64,000 nt of DNA from an uncultured Porphyromonas sp. (GCF_900539155.1 NZ_UQBE01000003.1); one strand, 5' to 3'; positions 5,886 to 59,264 are shown, counted from the first letter of the stretch. The notes: a model not told the origin generated them from the letters alone. Numbers and translations: made by a program.

Positions 5886-5922
5886 AAAAGGTTTAACCTC
5901 TCTCGTGGGGCTAGAACCTTTT
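5886..5922. terminator. Bidirectional rho-independent terminator between the OMP gene (+) and rlmN (-)
   Basis: Stem aaaaggtt / aacctttt (8 bp) around a 22-nt loop, with T/A runs on both sides. Confidence 0.4.
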
Positions 5923-5930
5923 GTCATAAT

Positions 5931-5957
5931 GAGACTGTTGACTTTTGCAACAGTCTC
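5931..5957. repeat. Solo palindromic hairpin unit GAGACTGTTG-acttttg-CAACAGTCTC
   Basis: Perfect 10-bp stem and 7-nt loop. The same unit is fused into the ends of the 175-bp MITE copies and recurs at 22157, 32452, 59094 and 59150. Confidence 0.8.
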
Positions 5958-11654: not shown

Positions 11655-11775
11655 AATGGTCTTATCTCATTGTATCCTCTACAAAGATAGACAAAAAGAG
11701 CTTAGTAGTAAAGCGAAGCGGTAAAGCTGGCGCACTTTTAGCTTGACTCATCTAATCAATTGAGACTATAAAACA

Positions 11776-12000
11776 GAATATTCACGTGGAAAATCTCAAA
11801 TCTTCACGTGGATATTTTTTATTTTCCACGTGGGCGTGATTCATTTCCTCCGAAGTTTTATTTGATTCCTCCGAAGAATTTTTTCTTCCCCACGTGGAAA
11901 ATAAAAAATATCCACGTGGAGATTTCAAAATATCCACGTGGAAATCCGTTTTCCCCGACATAGTGCCGTGTTGATATGTAGTCGGGTCTAAATTATTGTA
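11776..12000 (+). repeat. CACGTG triple-hairpin interspersed element, copy A (6 CACGTG sites; lacks the CTCTAA leader)
   Basis: atattcacgtggaaaatctcaaatcttcacgtggatat; ttttattttccacgtggg...cctccgaag x2...ccccacgtggaaaataaaaa; tatccacgtggagatttcaaaatatccacgtgg; then the conserved tail gaaatccgttttccccgacatagtgccgtgttgatatgtagtcgggtctaaattattgta. Confidence 0.85.
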
Positions 12001-12029
12001 ATAAGCCGGCTTTGGATTTCTCTAGCTGA

Positions 12030-12064
12030 GCTGATGCATTACAATCGCTCTGTCAGGAACTACA
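12030..12064 (+). repeat. GCTGA(C/T)GCAT..TAATCG.TCTGTCAGGA.CTACA module (family G), copy 1
   Basis: Shared with 50063..50130 and 58694..58760. Confidence 0.7.
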
Positions 12065-12114
12065 CAGATCCCTTCTAGAAATAAATCGTGTTTTTCAGCA
12101 CCTCAAAATAGGGC

Positions 12115-13401
12115 TTAGCCGTTGCTCTGCTGGAGCTGCTGGTCGTGTCGGCGCAAGAGGTAGAGGAGCCAGCCTCCGTAGAGCAAGTGATAGAGTGCGA
12201 TGACTAGGTAGTAGGTGGAGACGGTCTCGGCGAAGGGTGTGCGCAAGACGTAGATAAGTAGCACCAGGAGGGCAACCTGCAGGAAGAGGTTGAGCAGTTG
12301 GATCTGTAGGTGCGCTCTTTGCCGCCCGATGATGTCGGGGATGACGTTGATGATGGAGGTGAAGAAGAAGATGAGCAGGTAAACGAGCATAGCGCGTATG
12401 ATCTCTGTGCAGGCTGCGTACTCGGGAGCTAAGAGCCAGCGAACTAGATAAGGCATAGCCCACCAGAGAATTAAGAGCGTGGGGATGCCTGCCACGAGCG
12501 TTAGCATGAGCAGCGGGCGGACGAGCGGTCGCCAGGGTGCCTGCGCGTGGTGTGCTACGGAGAGACGGTTGAAGTAGACCTGACTGACGCTATCTGCGAT
12601 GAGCTGTATGGGACGGCGTGCCAGCATCGTTGCCATAGTGACTAGTCCTATCTCGACGGTGGTGTAGCCTAGCGGTAGCATGAGGATTAGGATTGACCCG
12701 AGGAGGGTGGTGATGGCTGCCTGAGGAAGGCTAAAGAGGGGGAAGGCTCTGTACTTGCGAGCCACTTGCCCGAGCTCTCTACGACTGCTTGGGTTATTGG
12801 TTTGCCTGCTATGTTTGAGGGGTCGCAGGAGTGGAATGAGTGCGAGCAGCGTTGAGGCTATTTGCGCGCCCCACAAGCTCCAGACGGAGGGGGAGAAGAG
12901 TCCGAAGCCCACTTTGAGTCCATTATTGCCCAGTCCCTGCACCGCCTTGCTGGTGGCGATACGCTTGAACTGTCCTAGGCTTAGCGCGTAGTTGCTGAGT
13001 GTAGCGCACAGTCCCAAGGTGCAGACGACGGGTGGAATAAGCCAGAGCTTACCCTGCAGGGTAGCGTAGCGGGTGGTGCCGATCCACGGCTCGAAGGCTA
13101 GGGTGAGGGCGAGTAGGGCGAGCGTCACTAGAGCTGTAATCCAAAGGGTGAGTCGTAACAAGTGGTCTCGCTCTAAGGGCTCTTGGCAGACGACGATAGC
13201 CTGCTCGTAGCGTCCCCCCACAGCGATGCTGAGCAGCGTGGCAATGGAGAGGATGAGTGCTAGGTCGCCTAGCGTGTCTGGTGTGTATATTCTACTGACC
13301 CATGGTAGGAGAAGTAGGGCTATCAGCTGTACCCCGACGCCGACAGAGAGGAGTAGACCGCTGTCGGCTAGTATGGAGCGTAGTGATCGGGGCACTTTCA
13401 C
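12115..13401 (-). CDS. MOP-superfamily oligosaccharide/polysaccharide flippase (Wzx-like)
   Basis: 428 aa, ~12 TM, with the typical N-terminal ...LLPWVSRIYTPDTLGDLALILS. Confidence 0.7.
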   Translation of the reverse strand: MKVPRSLRSILADSGLLLSVGVGVQLIALLLLPWVSRIYTPDTLGDLALILSIATLLSIAVGGRYEQAIVVCQEPLERDHLLRLTLWITALVTLALLALTLAFEPWIGTTRYATLQGKLWLIPPVVCTLGLCATLSNYALSLGQFKRIATSKAVQGLGNNGLKVGFGLFSPSVWSLWGAQIASTLLALIPLLRPLKHSRQTNNPSSRRELGQVARKYRAFPLFSLPQAAITTLLGSILILMLPLGYTTVEIGLVTMATMLARRPIQLIADSVSQVYFNRLSVAHHAQAPWRPLVRPLLMLTLVAGIPTLLILWWAMPYLVRWLLAPEYAACTEIIRAMLVYLLIFFFTSIINVIPDIIGRQRAHLQIQLLNLFLQVALLVLLIYVLRTPFAETVSTYYLVIALYHLLYGGWLLYLLRRHDQQLQQSNG

Positions 13402-22156: not shown

Positions 22157-22183
22157 GAGACTGTTGACCCTTGCGACAGTCTC
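22157..22183. repeat. Solo palindromic hairpin unit (GAGACTGTTGacccttgCGACAGTCTC)
   Basis: Variant of the MITE terminal-repeat hairpin. Followed by ataatgtgtcacccctg, the family-G inverted end. Confidence 0.7.
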
Positions 22184-22200
22184 ATAATGTGTCACCCCTG

Positions 22201-22437
22201 CCCTCTAACCTCTAATTTCTAACCTCTAACCTCTAATTACTCTCCTTTTTCGAATATCCACGTGGAGAATCTCAAATCTCCACGTGGATATTTTTTATTT
22301 TCCACGTGGGCGTGATTCATTTCCTCCGAAGTTTCATTTGATTCCTCCGAAGAATTTTTTCTTCCCCACGTGGAAAATAAAAATTATCCACGTGGAGATT
22401 TCGAAATATCCACGTGGCGGTTTGAGATTTTCCACGT
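22201..22437 (+). repeat. CACGTG triple-hairpin element, copy B (with CTCTAA leader, 7 CACGTG/CACGTA sites; tail replaced)
   Basis: ccctctaacctctaatttctaacctctaacctctaattac leader. The three hairpin modules are as in copies A, C and D. It ends cggtttgagattttccacgtacg and runs into the GC-rich region. Confidence 0.85.
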
Positions 22438-22440
22438 ACG

Positions 22441-23160
22441 TATTAAAGCGATATGTCTAACCCGCTGTATAGACGTACGTTATGCGTAACGATGATGTAG
22501 GGACGCACGGGACGTGTAACGGTTGTAGGGACGCTCGCTCTGAGCGTCCGTTGTGTCAAAGCAAGACGAGTAATCCGTCATCGTAAAAGCTGAACATCGT
22601 AACCTTTAACGGGGACGGACGCCCTCCCGCTAGACACTCTCGTGCGTCCCTACACGGCAACGTGGGGGGATGACGGACGCACTATGACTCGAGGCTAGCC
22701 GTGACTGAATCCTGTAGGGACTTGACGGTCTGTGCGTCCGTCCCCGTCAAAGCCACGACGCTGTAACTTTTGACGCAACGGACGCACCGACCGTCAAGTC
22801 CCTACGGAGATCGGGGTTACAGCGTTTGATGAGTGGAATTGTCGTGCTGACGTAGCTTGTGTAGGGGCGGACCTGCGTGTCCGCCCGTAGAATAGACTGC
22901 GCTCAGGTGAGGACAGGCGGACACACAGGTCCGCCCCTACGGTGGAAGCCCCCCACCCCGACGAGCGGTTCCCCGAAGAGAAGTCGACCGAGCTTGCGAA
23001 ACGAGAAAAAACTTCGCTTTTTACTTGCATATGAACTTAGAAAGCGGGCTACACGTCTTGCCGTTCGACAACGGACGCACCGACGGCCTGCGTCCCGACC
23101 GTCAAGTCCCTACAGCGGGTTACTCGTAGGGTTGCCACTTGAATGTGCGATAATGCGTCA
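22441..23160. repeat. GC-rich, ORF-free repeat-dense region with nested inverted and direct repeats (units ACGGACGCAC, GTAGGGAC, GACCGTCAAGTCCCTAC)
   Basis: Exact reverse-complement pairs: 22500-22512/22641-22653 (13 bp); 22672-22682/22732-22742 (11 bp); 22603-22622/22731-22751 (18 of 19); 22711-22730 vs 22789-22807 and 23097-23115 (19 bp); and the palindrome pair 22861-22885/22917-22940 (24 of 25). Direct repeat 22776-22807 ~ 23069-23115. Confidence 0.8.
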
Positions 23161-23309
23161 GCCCCTCGTTGGGTTTTGTTGCTTCACTCTTTTTTTGTAA
23201 CTTGCCACCACTTTGAGAGCGGGTGCTCACCCCCGCACTCTTAGGTGACACTATACCTGTTTGGGTATCACATAAATACAGTTTAGATAGTACTAAGTAA
23301 TAATATTAT

Positions 23310-25052
23310 ATGGTCAAAAAACTACTATTTATCGCAGGGCTACTTGTTGCAACGAGCGGACTATCGCTCCAGGCATCAGCCCAAACAGCCGAGCTCTCCA
23401 ACTATGGAGGTGAAGGCACTAAGGAACTCTCTTACAGCTCTCGCCACGAGCTCCAGACGGGCCGACAGCTGATGTCGCAAGATGTCAAGTCGACAGACGA
23501 GCGTAAGATCTTCGCCACCAAGGAGGGATTCTTCGTCCGCTTTGTCAGCGAAGAGAACAAGACCGTCGAGATTGCACCAGCGCAGAGTTCGGAGGATCGT
23601 CTTAAGGAGGGCATTTACTACAAGAATGTCGTCATCCCTGAGACTCTCCAGGTCGAGAAGGGTAAGAATGAAGTGATCCCCTGCACGGTTGTAGCTGTAG
23701 GGCAAGCCGCATTCGCTCTCAATGAGGTCCAGACGGTGCAGTATCCAGCTACCTGCAAAGAGCTTAAGGATCGAGTATTCCGTCTAGCAAGTCTCAAGGA
23801 GTGTGTCATCCCTGATCAGATTGAGAAAATCGGCGATAATGTCTTTATGGATTGTAGACTCGTAACTAAGGTGGAGATTGGCAAGGGACTCAAGACGATG
23901 GGCAAGACGCCTTTTATAAACTGTCAGAACCTAGCGACCATTACAGTCTCACCCGACAATACAATCCTCACGGCTCAAGACAATATCCTCTACAGCAAAG
24001 ATATGACGAAAGTCTATCTATGCCCCGCTGAGCTTAAAACGCCTAAGATTGTACTGCCCAACACGGTAAAGGAGATAGCGGACTACGCCTTCCTAAGTTG
24101 CATCTATATCAAGGAACTCGTCCTCAACGAGGGTCTGGAGCGAATAGGTGAGGAGGGCCTTTCCAACTGCTCTTGGCTGGAGCAGCTGACGATACCTGCT
24201 TCCGTAAAGGAGATTGGACCGAGAGCCCTTACGCTGCTGAAGAAGTGTGAGACTATTACGGTCGCAGAGGGCAACGAGACCTTTGAGGCTAAGTCTGACG
24301 GGGTCAATGAGGGTAAGCTCCTAATTAACAAGAAAAAGAACTCACTAGTCACCTGTCTCTTCAAGGGTACTAAGGCGGTCACTGTGCCAGAGGGTATCAC
24401 TGAAATCGAACCTTTTGCATTCCTCTCCTGTCGCTGGACTGCGTCGCTCCAGCTCCCTGCTTCTGTAGAGCGCGTCGGACAGACCGCTTTTTCCGATATG
24501 CAGATGCTCAAGGAGATCGTAATCCCTGATAAGGTCGAGGTCATAACACGTTACTGCATCAGTGACTGTAAGAAACTCACGAAGATAACCCTTGGCAAGG
24601 GTGTCAAGATGGTCGAGGACCAAGCCTTTGCTGGCAACGAAACGATGGAGAAGAAGGGTGGCACGCTACAGATACTAGCCGTCACGCCCCCAGCAGTAGA
24701 CAAGAACAGTGATGGCAAGACCTACGAGATGAGCGAAGACTTCTATAAGAATGTCGTACTAGAGGTTCCCAAGGAGGCTAGAGAGGCTTATAAGAATGAC
24801 ATCAACTGGAGCCTATTCTACCAGATTTATCCAGTAGGCAATGAGCCTGTTCAGCCCGTATCACCACTACAGATTAGCGTAGCTGGTGGACTCCTCTCTA
24901 TCGTAGCTCCTGAGGTAGCTCCAATTGCTATCTATACTATCGATGGTCAGATGCTCTACACGACCTCGGCTCAGGAGACGCAGCTCGCACTACCTGCAGG
25001 TCTCTATATGGTCACCTACGGAACACAAGCTACTAAGGTCTTCGTAGACTAA
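23310..25052 (+). CDS. BspA-type leucine-rich-repeat surface protein (Bacteroidales/Treponema LRR_5 class)
   Basis: Signal peptide. Repeated ~23-aa units of the form IPxxVxxIGxxAFxxCxxLxxV. C-terminal ...LYMVTYGTQATKVFVD is a CTD-like beta-sandwich. Confidence 0.75.
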   Translation: MVKKLLFIAGLLVATSGLSLQASAQTAELSNYGGEGTKELSYSSRHELQTGRQLMSQDVKSTDERKIFATKEGFFVRFVSEENKTVEIAPAQSSEDRLKEGIYYKNVVIPETLQVEKGKNEVIPCTVVAVGQAAFALNEVQTVQYPATCKELKDRVFRLASLKECVIPDQIEKIGDNVFMDCRLVTKVEIGKGLKTMGKTPFINCQNLATITVSPDNTILTAQDNILYSKDMTKVYLCPAELKTPKIVLPNTVKEIADYAFLSCIYIKELVLNEGLERIGEEGLSNCSWLEQLTIPASVKEIGPRALTLLKKCETITVAEGNETFEAKSDGVNEGKLLINKKKNSLVTCLFKGTKAVTVPEGITEIEPFAFLSCRWTASLQLPASVERVGQTAFSDMQMLKEIVIPDKVEVITRYCISDCKKLTKITLGKGVKMVEDQAFAGNETMEKKGGTLQILAVTPPAVDKNSDGKTYEMSEDFYKNVVLEVPKEAREAYKNDINWSLFYQIYPVGNEPVQPVSPLQISVAGGLLSIVAPEVAPIAIYTIDGQMLYTTSAQETQLALPAGLYMVTYGTQATKVFVD

Positions 25053-39148: not shown

Positions 39149-39254
39149 TTCAAAGAGAACGTTTTACCAACTAGAGAGTAGAGTCTCTAGGATAGCTAGT
39201 CTCCCCAGTACAACTAGTATCACTAGGGACACTAGTGTACCTAGAAAGCCTAGA

Positions 39255-39300
39255 AACTCTACTCTCTAACCTCTAACTTCTAAAATCTAATGTCTAATCT
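39255..39300. repeat. CTCTAA-like hexamer tract (ctctactctctaacctctaacttctaaaatctaatgtctaatctc) overlapping the hutI start codon
   Basis: Same hexamer periodicity as the leaders of the CACGTG elements, but with no element attached. The hutI ATG at 39290 lies inside it. Confidence 0.7.
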
Positions 39301-40564
39301 CTACCTATACAACATCGGTCAAATCGTAACCCGTCCGGGCTCTACCGCACAGCACGGTGCTGAGGCGATGCGTCAGCTCGGAGTCATCGAGGGACCAGCC
39401 GCCATCATCGTCCGACAAGGCAAGATAGCTTTCGTCGGAACCATGCAAGAAGCTGAGCAAGTAGACCACGCTGACTGCGTCGCTTATGACGCTCAGGGCG
39501 GATGCGTCTTGCCAGGCTTCGTCGATAGTCACACCCACCTCATCTTCGGGGGCTACCGTGAGGACGAGTTCCAGTGGCGACTAGCTGGCGACAGCTATAT
39601 GAGCATTATGGAGCGTGGCGGTGGTATAGCCAATACGATGAAGGCGACCCGTAGTGCAACGGCTGAGGAGCTTACCCAGCGTGCCTCTGCGCATCTAGAC
39701 GCTATGCTGTCTATGGGTGTTACCACCGTCGAGGCTAAGAGTGGCTACGGTATGGAACTGGACACCGAGATTAAGCAACTGGAGGTTATCCGGACGCTAC
39801 AGGAGCAGCACCCGATAGACCTTTACCCCACCTTCATGGGAGCGCACGACACCCCGCCCGAGTACAAGGGCCGCTCCACAGACTTCATCCACTACCTCTG
39901 TGACACGGTCATGCCAGTAGTCGTAGAGCGAGGCTTGGCTGAGTGCTGCGATATCTTTACAGAGAAGGGCGTCTTCGACCATGAGCAGACACGCATCCTC
40001 TTGACTCGTGCTAAGGAGCTAGGGCTCAAAGTTAAGATGCACGCCGACGAGATTGTCTCCTTCGGTGGTGCTGAGCTAGCAGTCGAGCTAGGATGTCTCT
40101 CTGCGGATCATCTCCTACAGATATCCGATGCTGGTATCAAAGCTTTGGCTCAGAGTGACACCGTGGCAACATGCCTCCCCTGTACCGCCTTCAGTCTCGG
40201 CGAGGAGTATGCGCCCGCACGTCGTATGATTGATGCAGGCTGTGCCGTAGCTGTCGCTTCCGATCTCAACCCAGGGAGCTGCTTCAGCTCCTCCATTCCG
40301 CTGATGTTCGCTCTAGCGACCATCTATATGGGTATGACCGTCGAGGAGGCCGTCACAGCACTTACGCTCAATGGTGCTGCCGCCATCGGTCGTGCAGACC
40401 AGATAGGAAGCATCGAGGTCGGCAAGGCGGGTGACCTAGCTCTCCTACGCTTCCCCTCGTACAAGTTCCTCTCTTACCACTTTGGTGTCAACCTCGTACG
40501 AGCCACCATCAAGGCGGGTACCGTCTACGAAAACAAACTGGTGACGCCCGCGCCCAGCGTTTAG
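39290..40564 (+). CDS. hutI: Imidazolonepropionase
   Basis: GFVDSHTHLIFGG, KMHADE, DLNPGS amidohydrolase motifs; 424 aa. Confidence 0.9.
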   Translation: MSNLYLYNIGQIVTRPGSTAQHGAEAMRQLGVIEGPAAIIVRQGKIAFVGTMQEAEQVDHADCVAYDAQGGCVLPGFVDSHTHLIFGGYREDEFQWRLAGDSYMSIMERGGGIANTMKATRSATAEELTQRASAHLDAMLSMGVTTVEAKSGYGMELDTEIKQLEVIRTLQEQHPIDLYPTFMGAHDTPPEYKGRSTDFIHYLCDTVMPVVVERGLAECCDIFTEKGVFDHEQTRILLTRAKELGLKVKMHADEIVSFGGAELAVELGCLSADHLLQISDAGIKALAQSDTVATCLPCTAFSLGEEYAPARRMIDAGCAVAVASDLNPGSCFSSSIPLMFALATIYMGMTVEEAVTALTLNGAAAIGRADQIGSIEVGKAGDLALLRFPSYKFLSYHFGVNLVRATIKAGTVYENKLVTPAPSV

Positions 40565-42971: not shown

Positions 42972-43035
42972 AGACTGTTGCATAAAAGCGAATCCCGAAA
43001 GCAACACAGCGATTCGCCTTTATGCAACAGTCTCT
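42972..43035. mobile_element. Foldback derivative of the 175-bp MITE (terminal inverted repeats brought together around a short core)
   Basis: gactgttgcataaaagcgaatc-ccgaaagcaacacagc-gattcgcctttatgcaacagtc gives 22-bp arms. Confidence 0.6.
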
Positions 43036-50062: not shown

Positions 50063-50130
50063 AATTACACAGAGCTGACGCATCGTAATCGATCTGTCAG
50101 GAGCTACAGATAGCGACCAGCGAGGAGTGG
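50063..50130 (+). repeat. Family-G module, copy 2 (gagctgacgcatcgtaatcgatctgtcaggagctacagatagcgaccagcgaggagtgg)
   Basis: Matches 58694..58760 and 12030..12064. Confidence 0.7.
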
Positions 50131-50204
50131 AGAGGTAGATAAACTCATTATATATGATGAGTCTCCCCTGTACGACACCCTCTGATAGTTCCGACCCCTC
50201 CGCT

Positions 50205-50285
50205 AGCTCTGATAGCTCTGATAGCTCCGATAGCTCCGATAGCTCTGATGACTCTGATAGCTCCGATAGCTCTGATAGCTCTGAT
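50205..50285 (+). repeat. 9-bp minisatellite (AGCTCYGAT) x9
   Basis: Nine head-to-tail units with C/T variation at one position, directly upstream of the CTCTAA leader of element copy C. In frame it reads (SSD)n, inside a 45-codon micro-ORF 50154..50291. Confidence 0.85.
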
Positions 50286-50294
50286 TCCTAATCC

Positions 50295-50550
50295 CTCCCC
50301 TCTAATCTCTAATTTCTAACCTCTAATCTCTAATTACCCTCTTTTTTCGAATATCCACGTGGGAAATCTCAAATCTCCACGTGGATATTTTTTATTTTCC
50401 ACGTGGGCGTGATTCATTTCCTCCGAAGTTTCATTTGATTCCTCCGAGGAATTTTTTCTTCCCCACGTGGAAAATAAAAATTCTCCACCTGGATATTTCA
50501 AATTCTCCACGTGGAAATCCGTTTCCCCCGACATAGTGCCGTATCGATAG
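50295..50550 (+). repeat. CACGTG triple-hairpin element, copy C (full length; one CACCTG variant site)
   Basis: Leader atccctcccctctaatctctaatttctaacctctaatctctaattaccctc, three hairpin modules, then tail gaaatccgtttcccccgacatagtgccgtatcgatag. Confidence 0.85.
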
Positions 50551-50619
50551 AAGGTCGTACCTTTGCTCTCGTGCTATAGCCGTCAGGCGGAGCCTTTTTT
50601 TGTCGTAATCCTAAGTCAG

Positions 50620-51921: not shown

Positions 51922-52098
51922 GAGACTGTTGCAAAAGTCAACAGTCTCCACAATCTTGCTTGTAAGATTGTCTAGACTTTGCAGAAAGGATGAAGCGCAA
52001 GGCGCTGAGGGTGAGGTCTGAAGGGAGCATACATCCGTATGTGACCGAAGCCGAATCCCGATAGCAACACAGCGATTCGCCTTTATGCAACAGTCTAC
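51922..52098 (-). mobile_element. 175-bp MITE-like element, copy 3 (inverted orientation)
   Basis: Its reverse complement aligns end-to-end with copies 1 and 2. It carries the full hairpin gagactgttgcaaaagtcaacagtctc at its 51922-51948 end. Confidence 0.8.
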
Positions 52099-52289
52099 TA
52101 TGGAGCATCGGACTACGCACCCTCTTGTCGGAAGGTGCGGAGAGTCCCTCGCTTGAAGAGCTAATCTACCCCTCGGCTGTAACTGGCAATGCCCTCTTCG
52201 CTGGGCGCTGCGATGAATAAAAGAAAAGTGGCGACCGCTCCTCTCGAGAGAAGCAGTCGCCACTTTGGCTTATCTGTTAGGGTAGGGGA

Positions 52290-58558: not shown

Positions 58559-58630
58559 TACCCCCGCTGAGAATCGAACTCAGATCTAAAGTTTAGGAAA
58601 CTTCTATTCTATCCGTTGAACTACAGGGGC
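58559..58630 (-). tRNA. tRNA-Arg (anticodon CCU)
   Basis: Hand-folded reverse complement GCCCCTG-TA-GTTC-AACGGATA-GAAT-A-GAAGT-TTCCTAA-ACTTT-AGAT-CTGAG-TTCGATT-CTCAG-CGGGGGT-A. Seven-bp acceptor stem, U8, G18G19, U33, anticodon CCT, A37, TTCGATT T-loop, discriminator A. CCA is not encoded. Confidence 0.85.
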
Positions 58631-58693: not shown

Positions 58694-58770
58694 AGGCAGG
58701 GCTGACGCATTATAATTGCTCTGTCAGGAGCTACAGATAGCAATCAGCGAGGAGTAGATGAACTCATTAT
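58694..58770 (+). repeat. Family-G module, copy 3; its first 17 nt (cagggctgacgcattat) are the inverted repeat of 59127..59143
   Basis: cagggctgacgcattataattgctctgtcaggagctacagatagcaatcagcgaggagtag... Confidence 0.7.
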
Positions 58771-58797
58771 ATAATATAGTGTATCTAATGTATCAGC

Positions 58798-59093
58798 TCT
58801 GCCCTCTAATCTCTAACTCCTAACCTCTAATTAATGGGGAATTTCGTCCGATTTCCCCTCCTTTCTCGAATATCCACGTGGGAAATCTCAAATCTCCACG
58901 TGGATATTTTTTATTTTCCACGTGGGCGTCATTCATTTCCTCCGAAGTTTTATTTGATTCCTCCGAAGAATTTTTTCTTCCCCACGTGGAAAATAAAAAT
59001 TCTCCACGTGAAGATTTCGAAATATCCACGTGGAGAATCCGTTTCCCCCCCCGACATAGCACCGTATCGATATGTAGTCGGTCTAAATTATTG
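58798..59093 (+). repeat. CACGTG triple-hairpin element, copy D (full length; extra gggga..tcccc hairpin insert in leader)
   Basis: Leader gccctctaatctctaactcctaacctctaattaatggggaatttcgtccgatttcccctc, six CACGTG sites in three hairpin modules, then tail gaatccgtttcccccccgacatagcaccgtatcgatatgtagtcggtctaaattattgt. Confidence 0.85.
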
Positions 59094-59176
59094 TGAGACT
59101 GATGACTTTTGCAATAGTCTATATATAATGCGTCAGCCCTGTGCTATGAGGAGACTGTTGACTTTTGCAACAGTCT
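59094..59176. repeat. Two palindromic hairpin units (one degenerate) flanking the inverted family-G end ataatgcgtcagccctg
   Basis: gagactgatgacttttgcaatagtcta ... ataatgcgtcagccctg ... gagactgttgacttttgcaacagtctc. Confidence 0.75.
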
Positions 59177-59264
59177 CCCAGGAGGATTCTCTCTTTTTTC
59201 GTGAAGATGTCACCGACAGAGGCTTGGCTCTGTTTTGGCGAGTGGGGTAGTGTGTGACGCCCCC

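Follow-up and report, generated by a model that had tools for sequence, protein, structure and literature searches.

An apparently undescribed, abundant intergenic repeat family of uncultured human-gut Porphyromonas with phased palindromic boxes

The 64,000-nucleotide stretch of DNA analysed here (hereafter the window) comes from an uncultured Porphyromonas species (GCF_900539155.1 NZ_UQBE01000003.1) and carries five copies of what is apparently an undescribed, abundant repeat family of uncultured human-gut Porphyromonas. The conserved object of this family is an array of about 176 bp made of eight in-register units of 22 bp. Units u1-u3 contain the octamer CCACGTGG, as do units u4-u6, which are arranged in inverse order, and the centre between them consists of two, sometimes three, units of the direct, non-palindromic repeat CCTCCGAAG; the last CCACGTGG block has three units, in some copies two. 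The element is multi-copy, dispersed and intergenic, it occurs at non-orthologous sites, and its presence varies between strains. Its boxes, phasing and centre are constrained, and its copies recombine and delete at the boxes. On sequence grounds, we lean towards the view that it is a non-autonomous repeat similar to MITEs (miniature inverted-repeat transposable elements) and to bacterial interspersed mosaic elements (BIMEs), in which the boxes and the centre would be recognised by a DNA-binding protein that acts in trans and copies the element.

Anatomy and conservation of the core

A preliminary description of the window had located the five copies, and both their coordinates and a whole-core alignment bear this out. 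All five, four full (A-D) and one collapsed (E), align across the whole core:

About 11747-12066, plus strand: copy A, full
22196-22444, plus strand: copy B, full
32332-32435, minus strand: copy E, collapsed
50295-50556, plus strand: copy C, full
58798-59094, plus strand: copy D, full

The octamer CCACGTGG occurs 21 times in the 64 kb, compared with 0.68 occurrences expected, and all 21 lie within copies; thus, a protein recognising it would have no visible set of ordinary promoter targets here. The 10-bp sequence TCCACGTGGA is found 10 times in the window, with 0.11 expected. CACGTG outside the copies is neither depleted nor unusual (about 11 sites versus about 15 expected), and the CACGTG centres of every full copy follow each other at intervals of 22, 22, 64, 22 and 22 bp. 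The copies sit between called genes, and open reading frames (ORFs) are not required to account for them. Motif counts and gene contexts therefore agree with the earlier view of an interspersed, non-coding, intergenic family of CACGTG-centred palindromes, in which the ORFs running through the element are not genes.

An alignment of 28 core copies, taken from the window and four other genomes and comprising 180 columns, contains no gaps inside the core; its sole gaps trail the 3' end. The core starts with CGAT(A/T)(G/T)CCACGTGG and ends with CCACGTGG..ATCG, and its inverted arms (59-86 nt, 76-81% complementarity) constitute terminal inverted repeats, as in a MITE. The element had been described as a set of three hairpins. 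These are real, but the centre is also 22-bp periodic, which makes the core an array of 8 x 22 bp. In all the DNA collected, 145 of the 184 complete copies have eight units. Seventy-six copies are composed as 3+2+3, 22 as 3+3+2 and 6 as 2+3+3, and since the latter two forms still total eight, the length of the array is kept despite the change in unit type.

The substitutions, scored for each subfamily against its own consensus and with the centre taken as 32 bp, are unevenly distributed over the core. In the diverged subfamily, that of the genomes UMGS907 and UMGS166, they affect 4.9% of box positions and 2.8% of the centre, compared with 23.3% of the remaining positions (Fisher p about 1e-22); the younger composite subfamily has 2.9%, 2.0% and 5.6%, respectively. 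The retention of exact palindromes, of an exact two-turn spacing and of a non-palindromic centre points to sequence-specific, phase-dependent recognition by a protein, and not to a mere hairpin. The earlier suggestion that TCCACGTGGA is a putative protein-binding site gains real support from this, the boxes and their phasing having changed far less than the spacers. Exact boxes, 22-bp phasing and a fixed length of eight units amid drifting spacers are unusual for bacterial MITE-like repeats, and TCCACGTGGA and CCTCCGAAG in their defined geometry provide a precise bait for the recognising protein. In orthologous pairs the core is 77-94% identical and the flanks 92-97%; with a core identity that does not exceed that of the flanks, purifying selection on the whole sequence in place is not evident.

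Folding bears out the preliminary description of three hairpins. H1 corresponds to u1:u2, the second hairpin to u3:u4 and H3 to u5:u6, all of which are valid local folds; in copy B, folded as DNA, H1 has an energy of -17.3 kcal/mol (z -9.7) and H3 of -11.7 kcal/mol (z -6.3). Folded in its entirety, the core is most stable as a single long hairpin (-88 and -93 kcal/mol, z -12 and -14), and the minimum free energy of the copy B core as RNA is -88.4 kcal/mol (z -12). Over the alignment, the three-hairpin model pairs 89.2% of the cells compared with 81.0% for the long hairpin, which does not gain extra covariation. A few compensatory changes, at pairs 9:40 (UA in 19 copies, GC in 8), 8:41 and 52:127, slightly favour three local hairpins over a long one, although with only two or three covarying pairs the comparison is weak either way. 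A mismatch in H3, at 149:160, is retained in 20 of the 28 copies.

One copy (locus L138, 194-353; loci retrieved from other genomes and contigs are given L numbers) carries the ATAG...CTAT hairpin, which is u1:u2 in the UMGS907 copies, across the centre on the opposite side. Hence, two-unit hairpin modules can swap places within the array. Frequent site-specific inversion at the symmetric boxes was considered and is ruled out, because the orientation of the centre relative to the leader and tail sequences that flank it is constant in the mapped composite copies.

Distribution, strain variation and gene context

The family is not restricted to the window, a possibility that the preliminary description had still to face. 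The coding DNA of the window is 86-91% identical to contigs of metagenome-assembled genomes (MAGs) of uncultured Porphyromonas, and in all regions compared the window has the same sequence as the human-gut metagenome scaffold ERZ28585695 DAVI15-1 scaffold_64. In a pattern scan of one genome per species, about half of the 107 matches listed belong to eight species-level 'uncultured Porphyromonas sp.' genomes, and the remaining matches listed are single chance matches in high-G+C taxa or unrelated arrays. These eight gut MAGs contain at least 57 copies, with lower bounds of 22 for MGYG-HGUT-03837 and of 10 each for UMGS166 and UMGS907. A stricter scan of metagenome contigs, mostly from human gut, yielded at least about 131 further copies in 1 Mb. 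Many contigs end within a copy, which indicates that the family breaks short-read assemblies; it explains the assembly breaks at these intergenic sites.

Across the eight species-level genomes, family members are 72-93% identical, and in five cross-species locus pairs copies are present at orthologous sites. The family is therefore not only recently active but also old. The recent amplification proposed earlier is in line with the similarity of the window copies, which are 91-94% alike, but does not account for the orthologous copies common to several species.

Direct arrays of 21-22-bp units with the CCACGTGG core were also encountered on unrelated contigs (L036 2273-2388, L239 2908-3040, L049 17-174 and L074 6212-6283, with others in L166/L217, L186 290-520, L203 and L229). 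Those of L036, a Bacillota MAG, and of L239 lie directly beside a gene for a TrfA/RPA-family replication initiator and are therefore very probably iterons.

Related genomes, whose loci were retrieved through neighbouring proteins, are polymorphic for the presence or absence of the element, as is characteristic of MITEs. Site A is empty in strain L117, where the stop codon region contains TTAG once; the filled site, with an insert of 373 bp, has TTAG twice. The comparison of occupied and empty sites that had been proposed thus yielded a putative target-site duplication at this one pair, but none was visible by eye at core boundaries in unique DNA. Full copies are present at site A in L109 and L110, and L108 has a 108-bp deletion there from u5 to u2. 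The copy at site D is conserved in L128, L129, L131, L132 and L134, and the element is absent from this site in the more distant strain L130. Conversely, ERR1855541_bin.22 carries a copy at a place that lacks one in the window, and a two-unit form occurs in L035.

The collapsed copy at site E illustrates how copies decay. Here four other strains (L119, L120, L123 and L124) carry all eight units of the core, and the window and L118 share a precise 152-bp deletion between direct repeats of about 20 bp in u6 and u1. The solo copy E is therefore derived and not ancestral, and it was correctly described as collapsed. Next to it, the window has a hexamer array of 2 units, where other strains have 7. 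Slippage between direct repeats, which arise from the palindromic boxes, is probably the best explanation of such box-to-box deletions, in keeping with what is established about long palindromes.

Site B shows that copies also recombine with each other. Strain L143 has an identical left flank, a normal tail and SprA downstream, whereas in the window box 6 runs directly into an inverted arm that comes from another copy, and a leucine-rich repeat (LRR)/BspA-like gene lies downstream; the differing junction and downstream gene imply that two copies recombined with the breakpoint at a box. Copies mark places where deletions, inversions and changes of synteny between strains cluster, next to housekeeping genes such as pyrH-frr and tRNA-Arg-rplU.

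In L133, the centre of copy D is interrupted by the end of a Mu-like prophage, and the half-element found there is thus explained by phage insertion into a copy. This transposable prophage is present in L133 (1-1955) and L138 (4888-9307); its genes encode a repressor with a cI-like helix-turn-helix and an S24 peptidase, an rve + Mu-transpos_C transposase and a MuB-like ATPase. An origin of the element as a mini-Mu was rejected, as the prophage (L133, L138) lacks CCACGTGG boxes at the end inspected, the L133 junction. Among viral contigs, the only match was a copy in sequence beside a Mu-like prophage, with no partner gene.

Genes are called on both sides of 26 copies, and every one of these copies is intergenic. 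Sixteen are located between tandem genes, six between divergent and four between convergent genes, which is near random for intergenic DNA. This does not sustain the promoter-proximal placement that had been reported for most copies. In the case of pyrH, moreover, the strain with the empty site also has the native -7 box TATCTTTG, which is located outside the insert.

Possible roles of the array and likeness to known systems

How could such an array have spread? We infer that copying is transposition-like and that the constrained motifs serve the copying step. Boxes and centre would be recognised by a sequence-specific, probably dimeric, DNA-binding protein that binds cooperatively, most likely an enzyme that acts in trans and brings copies of the element to new intergenic positions. 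The core travels in some lineages together with leader, tail and other short modules. Settled copies decay through box-to-box deletion into forms of one, two or three units, and recombination between copies generates synteny breaks between strains. In addition, the hairpin-plus-T-run on both strands may stop or stabilise transcripts that read into a copy. The element is small, non-coding, dispersed and intergenic, as MITEs in general are. If the binder is a transposase, the element would be selfish; if it is a host factor, the copies would represent dispersed chromosomal sites of a new kind.

Several observations weigh against spread by a copying enzyme. A duplication is seen at a single filled/empty pair, and its 4 bp could be due to chance. 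Orthologous copies in different species fit a long-kept, host-useful site as well as an old insertion, and uneven conservation can also result from selection in place instead of from the needs of copying. In addition, clustering of ORFs revealed no multi-copy ORF in 55 Porphyromonas loci; among about 134 Porphyromonas-type arms in the metagenome loci (1 Mb), none lacked an adjacent centre; the ORFs between the copy pairs examined were housekeeping genes, with no mobile gene found; and no autonomous relative with the same ends or a transposase was found in about 1.6 Mb around copies. Likewise, neither a Y1 transposase nor another multi-copy gene was seen beside about 190 copies, in an inspection that included no systematic protein search.

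The strong retention of boxes, centre and 22-bp phasing amid drifting spacers, the fixed length of eight units and the persistence of copies at orthologous sites across species would equally suit an array that is used by the host, however it first spread. The phased boxes would then load a ParB/Noc-like clamp, an iteron-binding Rep-like protein, a nucleoid-associated protein or a global regulator, and the copies would organise, titrate or regulate. The central 10 bp, TCCACGTGGA, are in the bacterial literature mostly the core of the Pseudomonas/Myxococcus parS variant TGTTCCACGTGGAACA, and the direct 22-bp arrays with the CCACGTGG core beside TrfA/RPA initiator genes in unrelated contigs point in the same direction. 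We nevertheless regard a host-used array as rather unlikely. Canonical parS was tried and rejected: its outer TGT/ACA bases are missing, the 16-bp TGTTNCACGTGNAACA has zero matches in the window at up to 3 mismatches, the box flanks are ATAT, ATCT or TTTT and not TGTT, and the sites, unlike parS, are scattered and carried on a repeat. Furthermore, neither a rep nor a par gene was seen beside the copies examined, the orthologous core is no better conserved than its coding flanks, and strains tolerate deletion to one to three units and even total absence. A bolder version, which we think improbable, is that a higher-order nucleoprotein complex would load or assemble on the dispersed arrays, where six dimer sites in two-turn phase and the conserved centre would be bound by a ParB/Noc-like or iteron-binding candidate with TCCACGTGGA specificity, at dozens of repeat-seeded sites per chromosome. 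If true, a chromosome-organising or copy-control system would be carried by a mobile repeat in gut Porphyromonas.

The stability of the folds raises the question of whether the element functions in RNA, as a terminator of transcription in both directions, an insulator or a hairpin module that stabilises transcripts. On the plus strand H1 is followed by TTTTTTATTTT, and on the minus strand H3 is followed by AATTTTTATTTT, in a mirror arrangement of hairpin and T-run; H1 plus its T-run in copy B was flagged by a terminator scan (17 pairs), and both the very stable long fold with its stable local hairpins and the compensatory changes would be compatible with such a role. The same scan, however, left copies A and D unflagged, there is no bias towards gene 3' ends, with 6 of the 26 copies between divergent genes, and no Rfam family matches. 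Pairing alone would explain neither why the non-palindromic centre is the most conserved part nor why the exact box sequence is kept, and the mismatch within H3 persists in most copies. We therefore consider a terminator or insulator unlikely as the explanation of the element. A DNA methyltransferase or restriction-modification system recognising CACGTG or CCACGTGG, for which the copies would be clustered targets, is very improbable indeed. The boxes are short perfect palindromes of the kind recognised by type II systems, and the CcrM-site-rich CIR repeats of Caulobacter set a precedent for an intergenic repeat defined by methylation sites, but CACGTG occurs outside the copies at an ordinary frequency, and the phasing, the conserved centre and the fixed length would be left unexplained.

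Of the known systems, the element works most like BIME/REPIN and modular MITEs (BrickBuilt, Correia, ERIC), although it is a member of none of those tested. Like BIMEs and their repetitive extragenic palindromic (REP) and REPIN relatives, it is intergenic and high-copy, lacks coding capacity, is joined with other short modules and shows no clear target duplication at unit boundaries. It alternates imperfect palindromic units with conserved non-palindromic motifs, which in BIMEs bind host proteins, and has the inverse palindromic pairs and inter-unit motif that define REP/BIME, as H1 and H3 flank the conserved centre. However, its sequence is unrelated and a GTAG 5' motif was not found in it; each arm has three identical 8-bp palindromic boxes in strict 22-bp phase, the length is fixed at eight units, there is no gene 3'-end bias, and a candidate REP-associated tyrosine transposase (RAYT) was not found between unit pairs in the DNA around copies.

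The inverse pairs of imperfect palindromes and the conserved motif between them nonetheless make it conceivable that the element is of REPIN or PATE type and is moved as single-stranded hairpins by an HUH Y1 transposase (RAYT or IS200/IS605 TnpA). Core copies in unique DNA without a visible target duplication would fit this mode of transfer. HUH Y1 transposases recognise irregular hairpins, and the conserved mismatch of H3 resembles these. On the other hand, the one clear filled/empty pair has a TTAG duplication, which the IS200/IS605 family does not make; a GTAG-type 5' tetranucleotide is missing; the about 1.6 Mb around copies revealed no Y1 gene, subject to the same limit of no systematic protein search; and strict 22-bp phasing of six identical palindromic boxes is not known as a feature of REP or IS200/IS605 ends. 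Mobilisation of this kind, suggested earlier by the likeness to PATE-type MITEs, consequently appears improbable to us. PATE and IS200/IS605-derived elements have subterminal hairpins but no terminal inverted repeats, make no target duplication and insert 3' of a fixed tetra- or pentanucleotide; the present element has hairpins but is a near-symmetric palindrome, and no fixed flanking motif was detected in copies with unique flanks.

The BrickBuilt MITE of P. gingivalis (Klein et al. 2015, PMC4596501) comes from the same genus. Its unit is a 23-nt direct tandem repeat (AGACCATAGTATCCTCTCATATG) present in 1 to 22.8 copies, and its leader and tail carry at their ends the IS5-like terminal inverted repeats GAGACCTTCGCA / TGAAAGGTCTC. 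Both families are strictly intergenic, consist of a leader, tandem units and a tail, form long stem-loops, adjoin IS5-type terminal-repeat sequences and have copy numbers in the tens. Membership in BrickBuilt was nonetheless rejected, because the 23-nt unit and the terminal repeats are unrelated to the present element: the units in the window are of 22 bp and of ATATCCACGTGGAGAATCTCAA or TCCTCCGAAGTTTCATTTGAT type, they form inverse arms and are fixed at eight, leader and tail are unrelated, and the element itself has no GAGACCTTCGCA terminal repeat. The earlier impression that the architecture belongs to no recognised family thus holds for the families tested, and Rfam returned no family at the gathering score, with tRNA-Arg (58559-58630) as the only match. 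No description of a CCACGTGG repeat in Porphyromonas was found in the literature searched, although the '22-nt tandem repeats' of W83 were not compared.

Correia (NEMIS) and ERIC/IRU elements are likewise intergenic imperfect palindromes of 100-180 bp that are present in many copies, vary between strains, can fold in transcripts and carry protein-binding sites (review PMC10969869). Correia elements are distinguished by an IHF site, terminal repeats of 26 bp and a duplicated TA, and neither family is known to have phased repeated boxes or a unit array. Plasmid iterons, which are direct repeats of 17-22 bp next to their rep gene and an AT-rich region, resemble the element in having protein-binding units with a period of about 22 bp, and its phasing and AT-rich stretches fit, but its units lie in inverse arms and it occurs in tens of copies per genome with no rep gene seen nearby, which sets it apart from iterons. 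Three units on each side in inverse orientation are also reminiscent of the ends of Mu and Tn7, where such units are transposase-binding sites; in contrast to both iterons and these ends, the units of the present element are themselves palindromic, and no adjacent rep or transposase gene was seen. A likeness to a DnaA box (TTATCCACA versus ATATCCACG) was noticed by eye only.

Leader, tail and neighbouring repeat modules

Comparison of the flanks indicates that leader and tail are separate, exchangeable modules and not fixed parts of the element. In its composite form, the element is arranged in the order 'X' module, (CTCTAA)n hexamers, leader, core, tail and 'X' module, and this form accounts for most copies in MGYG-HGUT-03837, UMGS18, ERR1855541_bin.22 and the window. 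The cores of UMGS907 and UMGS166 lie in unique DNA or have the alternative leader CAATTGAGACTATAAAACAG. Copy A, which had been thought to lack a leader, has this different one, which is common to copies in other species; the combination of alternative leader and core occurs at site A of the window and at no fewer than four other loci in other species, and it is the element alone that matches between them. The conserved tail ascribed to each full copy is likewise not universal, as copy B lacks it and the inverted arm fused to its box 6 supplies a seventh box (22430-22440). The parts of the five copies and the modules next to them are as follows.

Copy A
11742-12114, plus strand: whole insert relative to the empty-site strain, 373 bp
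11738-11741 and 12115-12118, plus strand: TTAG bordering the insert, from strain comparison
11747-11776, plus strand: alternative leader CAATTGAGACTATAAAACAG
11776-11948, plus strand: core
11949-12000, plus strand: tail T1
12001-12066, plus strand: tail T2 and part of an X module, followed by an inverse-oriented TTTTGAGGTGCT module

Copy B
22157-22183: IS5-type terminal-repeat hairpin preceding the leader
22196-22251, plus strand: leader, (CTCTAA)-type hexamers plus TTACTCTCCTTTTTCGAAT
22252-22417, plus strand: core, the best-preserved copy, centre with 2 x CCTCCGAAG
22258, 22280, 22302, 22366, 22388 and 22410, plus strand: the six CCACGTGG boxes
22418-22444, plus strand: inverted H1-type arm fragment CGGTTTGAGATTTTCCACGTACG joined to box 6

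Copy E
32332-32386, minus strand: tail
32387-32404, minus strand: single unit ATTCTCCACGTGGATATT
32405-32435, minus strand: leader

Copy C
50070-50131 and 50180-50294: X module and 9-mer array upstream
50295-50348, plus strand: leader, hexamer array plus TTACCCTCTTTTTTCGAAT
50349-50519, plus strand: core, box 5 mutated to CCACCTGG
To about 50556, plus strand: truncated tail

Copy D
58697-58790: X module upstream
58798-58867, plus strand: leader, with hexamers at 58798-58832 and the leader hairpin GGGGAATTTCGTCCGATTTCCCC at 58836-58858
58868-59038, plus strand: core, CACGTG centres at 58875, 58897, 58919, 58983, 59005 and 59027
59039-59094, plus strand: tail CCGTTTCCCCCCCCGACATAGCACCGTATCGATATGTAGTCGGTCTAAATTATTGT
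59095-59120 and 59151-59177: two IS5-type terminal-repeat hairpins after the tail

The X module is a separate repeat of about 100 bp with its own inverted ends, CAGGGCTGACGCATTATAAT ... ATTATAATGCGTCAGCCCTG. In the window it is found at 50070-50131, 58697-58790 and 12030-12066, with inverse pieces near 23150, 32483 and 59125. In MGYG-HGUT-03837, X modules are present on both sides of the leader-core-tail composite, with a spacing of about 470-490 bp, and L076 contains two composites in tandem. Hexamer arrays of the (CTCTAA)n type adjoin the element at 22201-22240, 50295-50335, 58798-58832 and 32420-32435, and a further one is located at 39244-39305; a 9-mer array, (GATAGCTCY)n, lies at copy C (50180-50303).

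A 27-bp intergenic hairpin, GAGACTGTTGAC-TTTT-GCAACAGTCTC, is present at 2256-2296, 5917-5957, 22157-22183 and 30859-30899, and again at 32453-32479, 59095-59120 and 59151-59177. Its arms are the same as the terminal inverted repeat that P. gingivalis ISPg4/MITEPgRS is listed with (GAGACTGTTGCA), and its number at site D differs between strains, with one hairpin versus two (L132 versus the window). Another dispersed repeat, of 150-178 bp and 88-93% identity, occurs at 2120-2297, 30717-30900 and, in inverse orientation, at 51949-52105, and a 46-bp piece of it at 42989-43034 and 52052-52096. Both the repeat and the piece end in GCAACAGTCTC, and the repeat is probably an IS5-type MITE.

Some copies have GAGACTGTTG...CAACAGTCTC hairpins next to them, which are separate modules. 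The G+C-rich intergenic hairpins GGGACGGACGC...GCGTCCCTACA, found in the window at 22490-22700, in L130 at 2080-2150 and in the flanks of L021 and L060, constitute a further REP-like family. Look-ups of the ORF at 22877-23200 and of the long form of the ORF ending at 50083 gave no match. The former, of 107 amino acids, is not on record as a gene and resembles non-coding repeat DNA; it lies in a stretch of 860 bp without a credible gene (22450-23310), between copy B and the LRR (BspA-like) gene.

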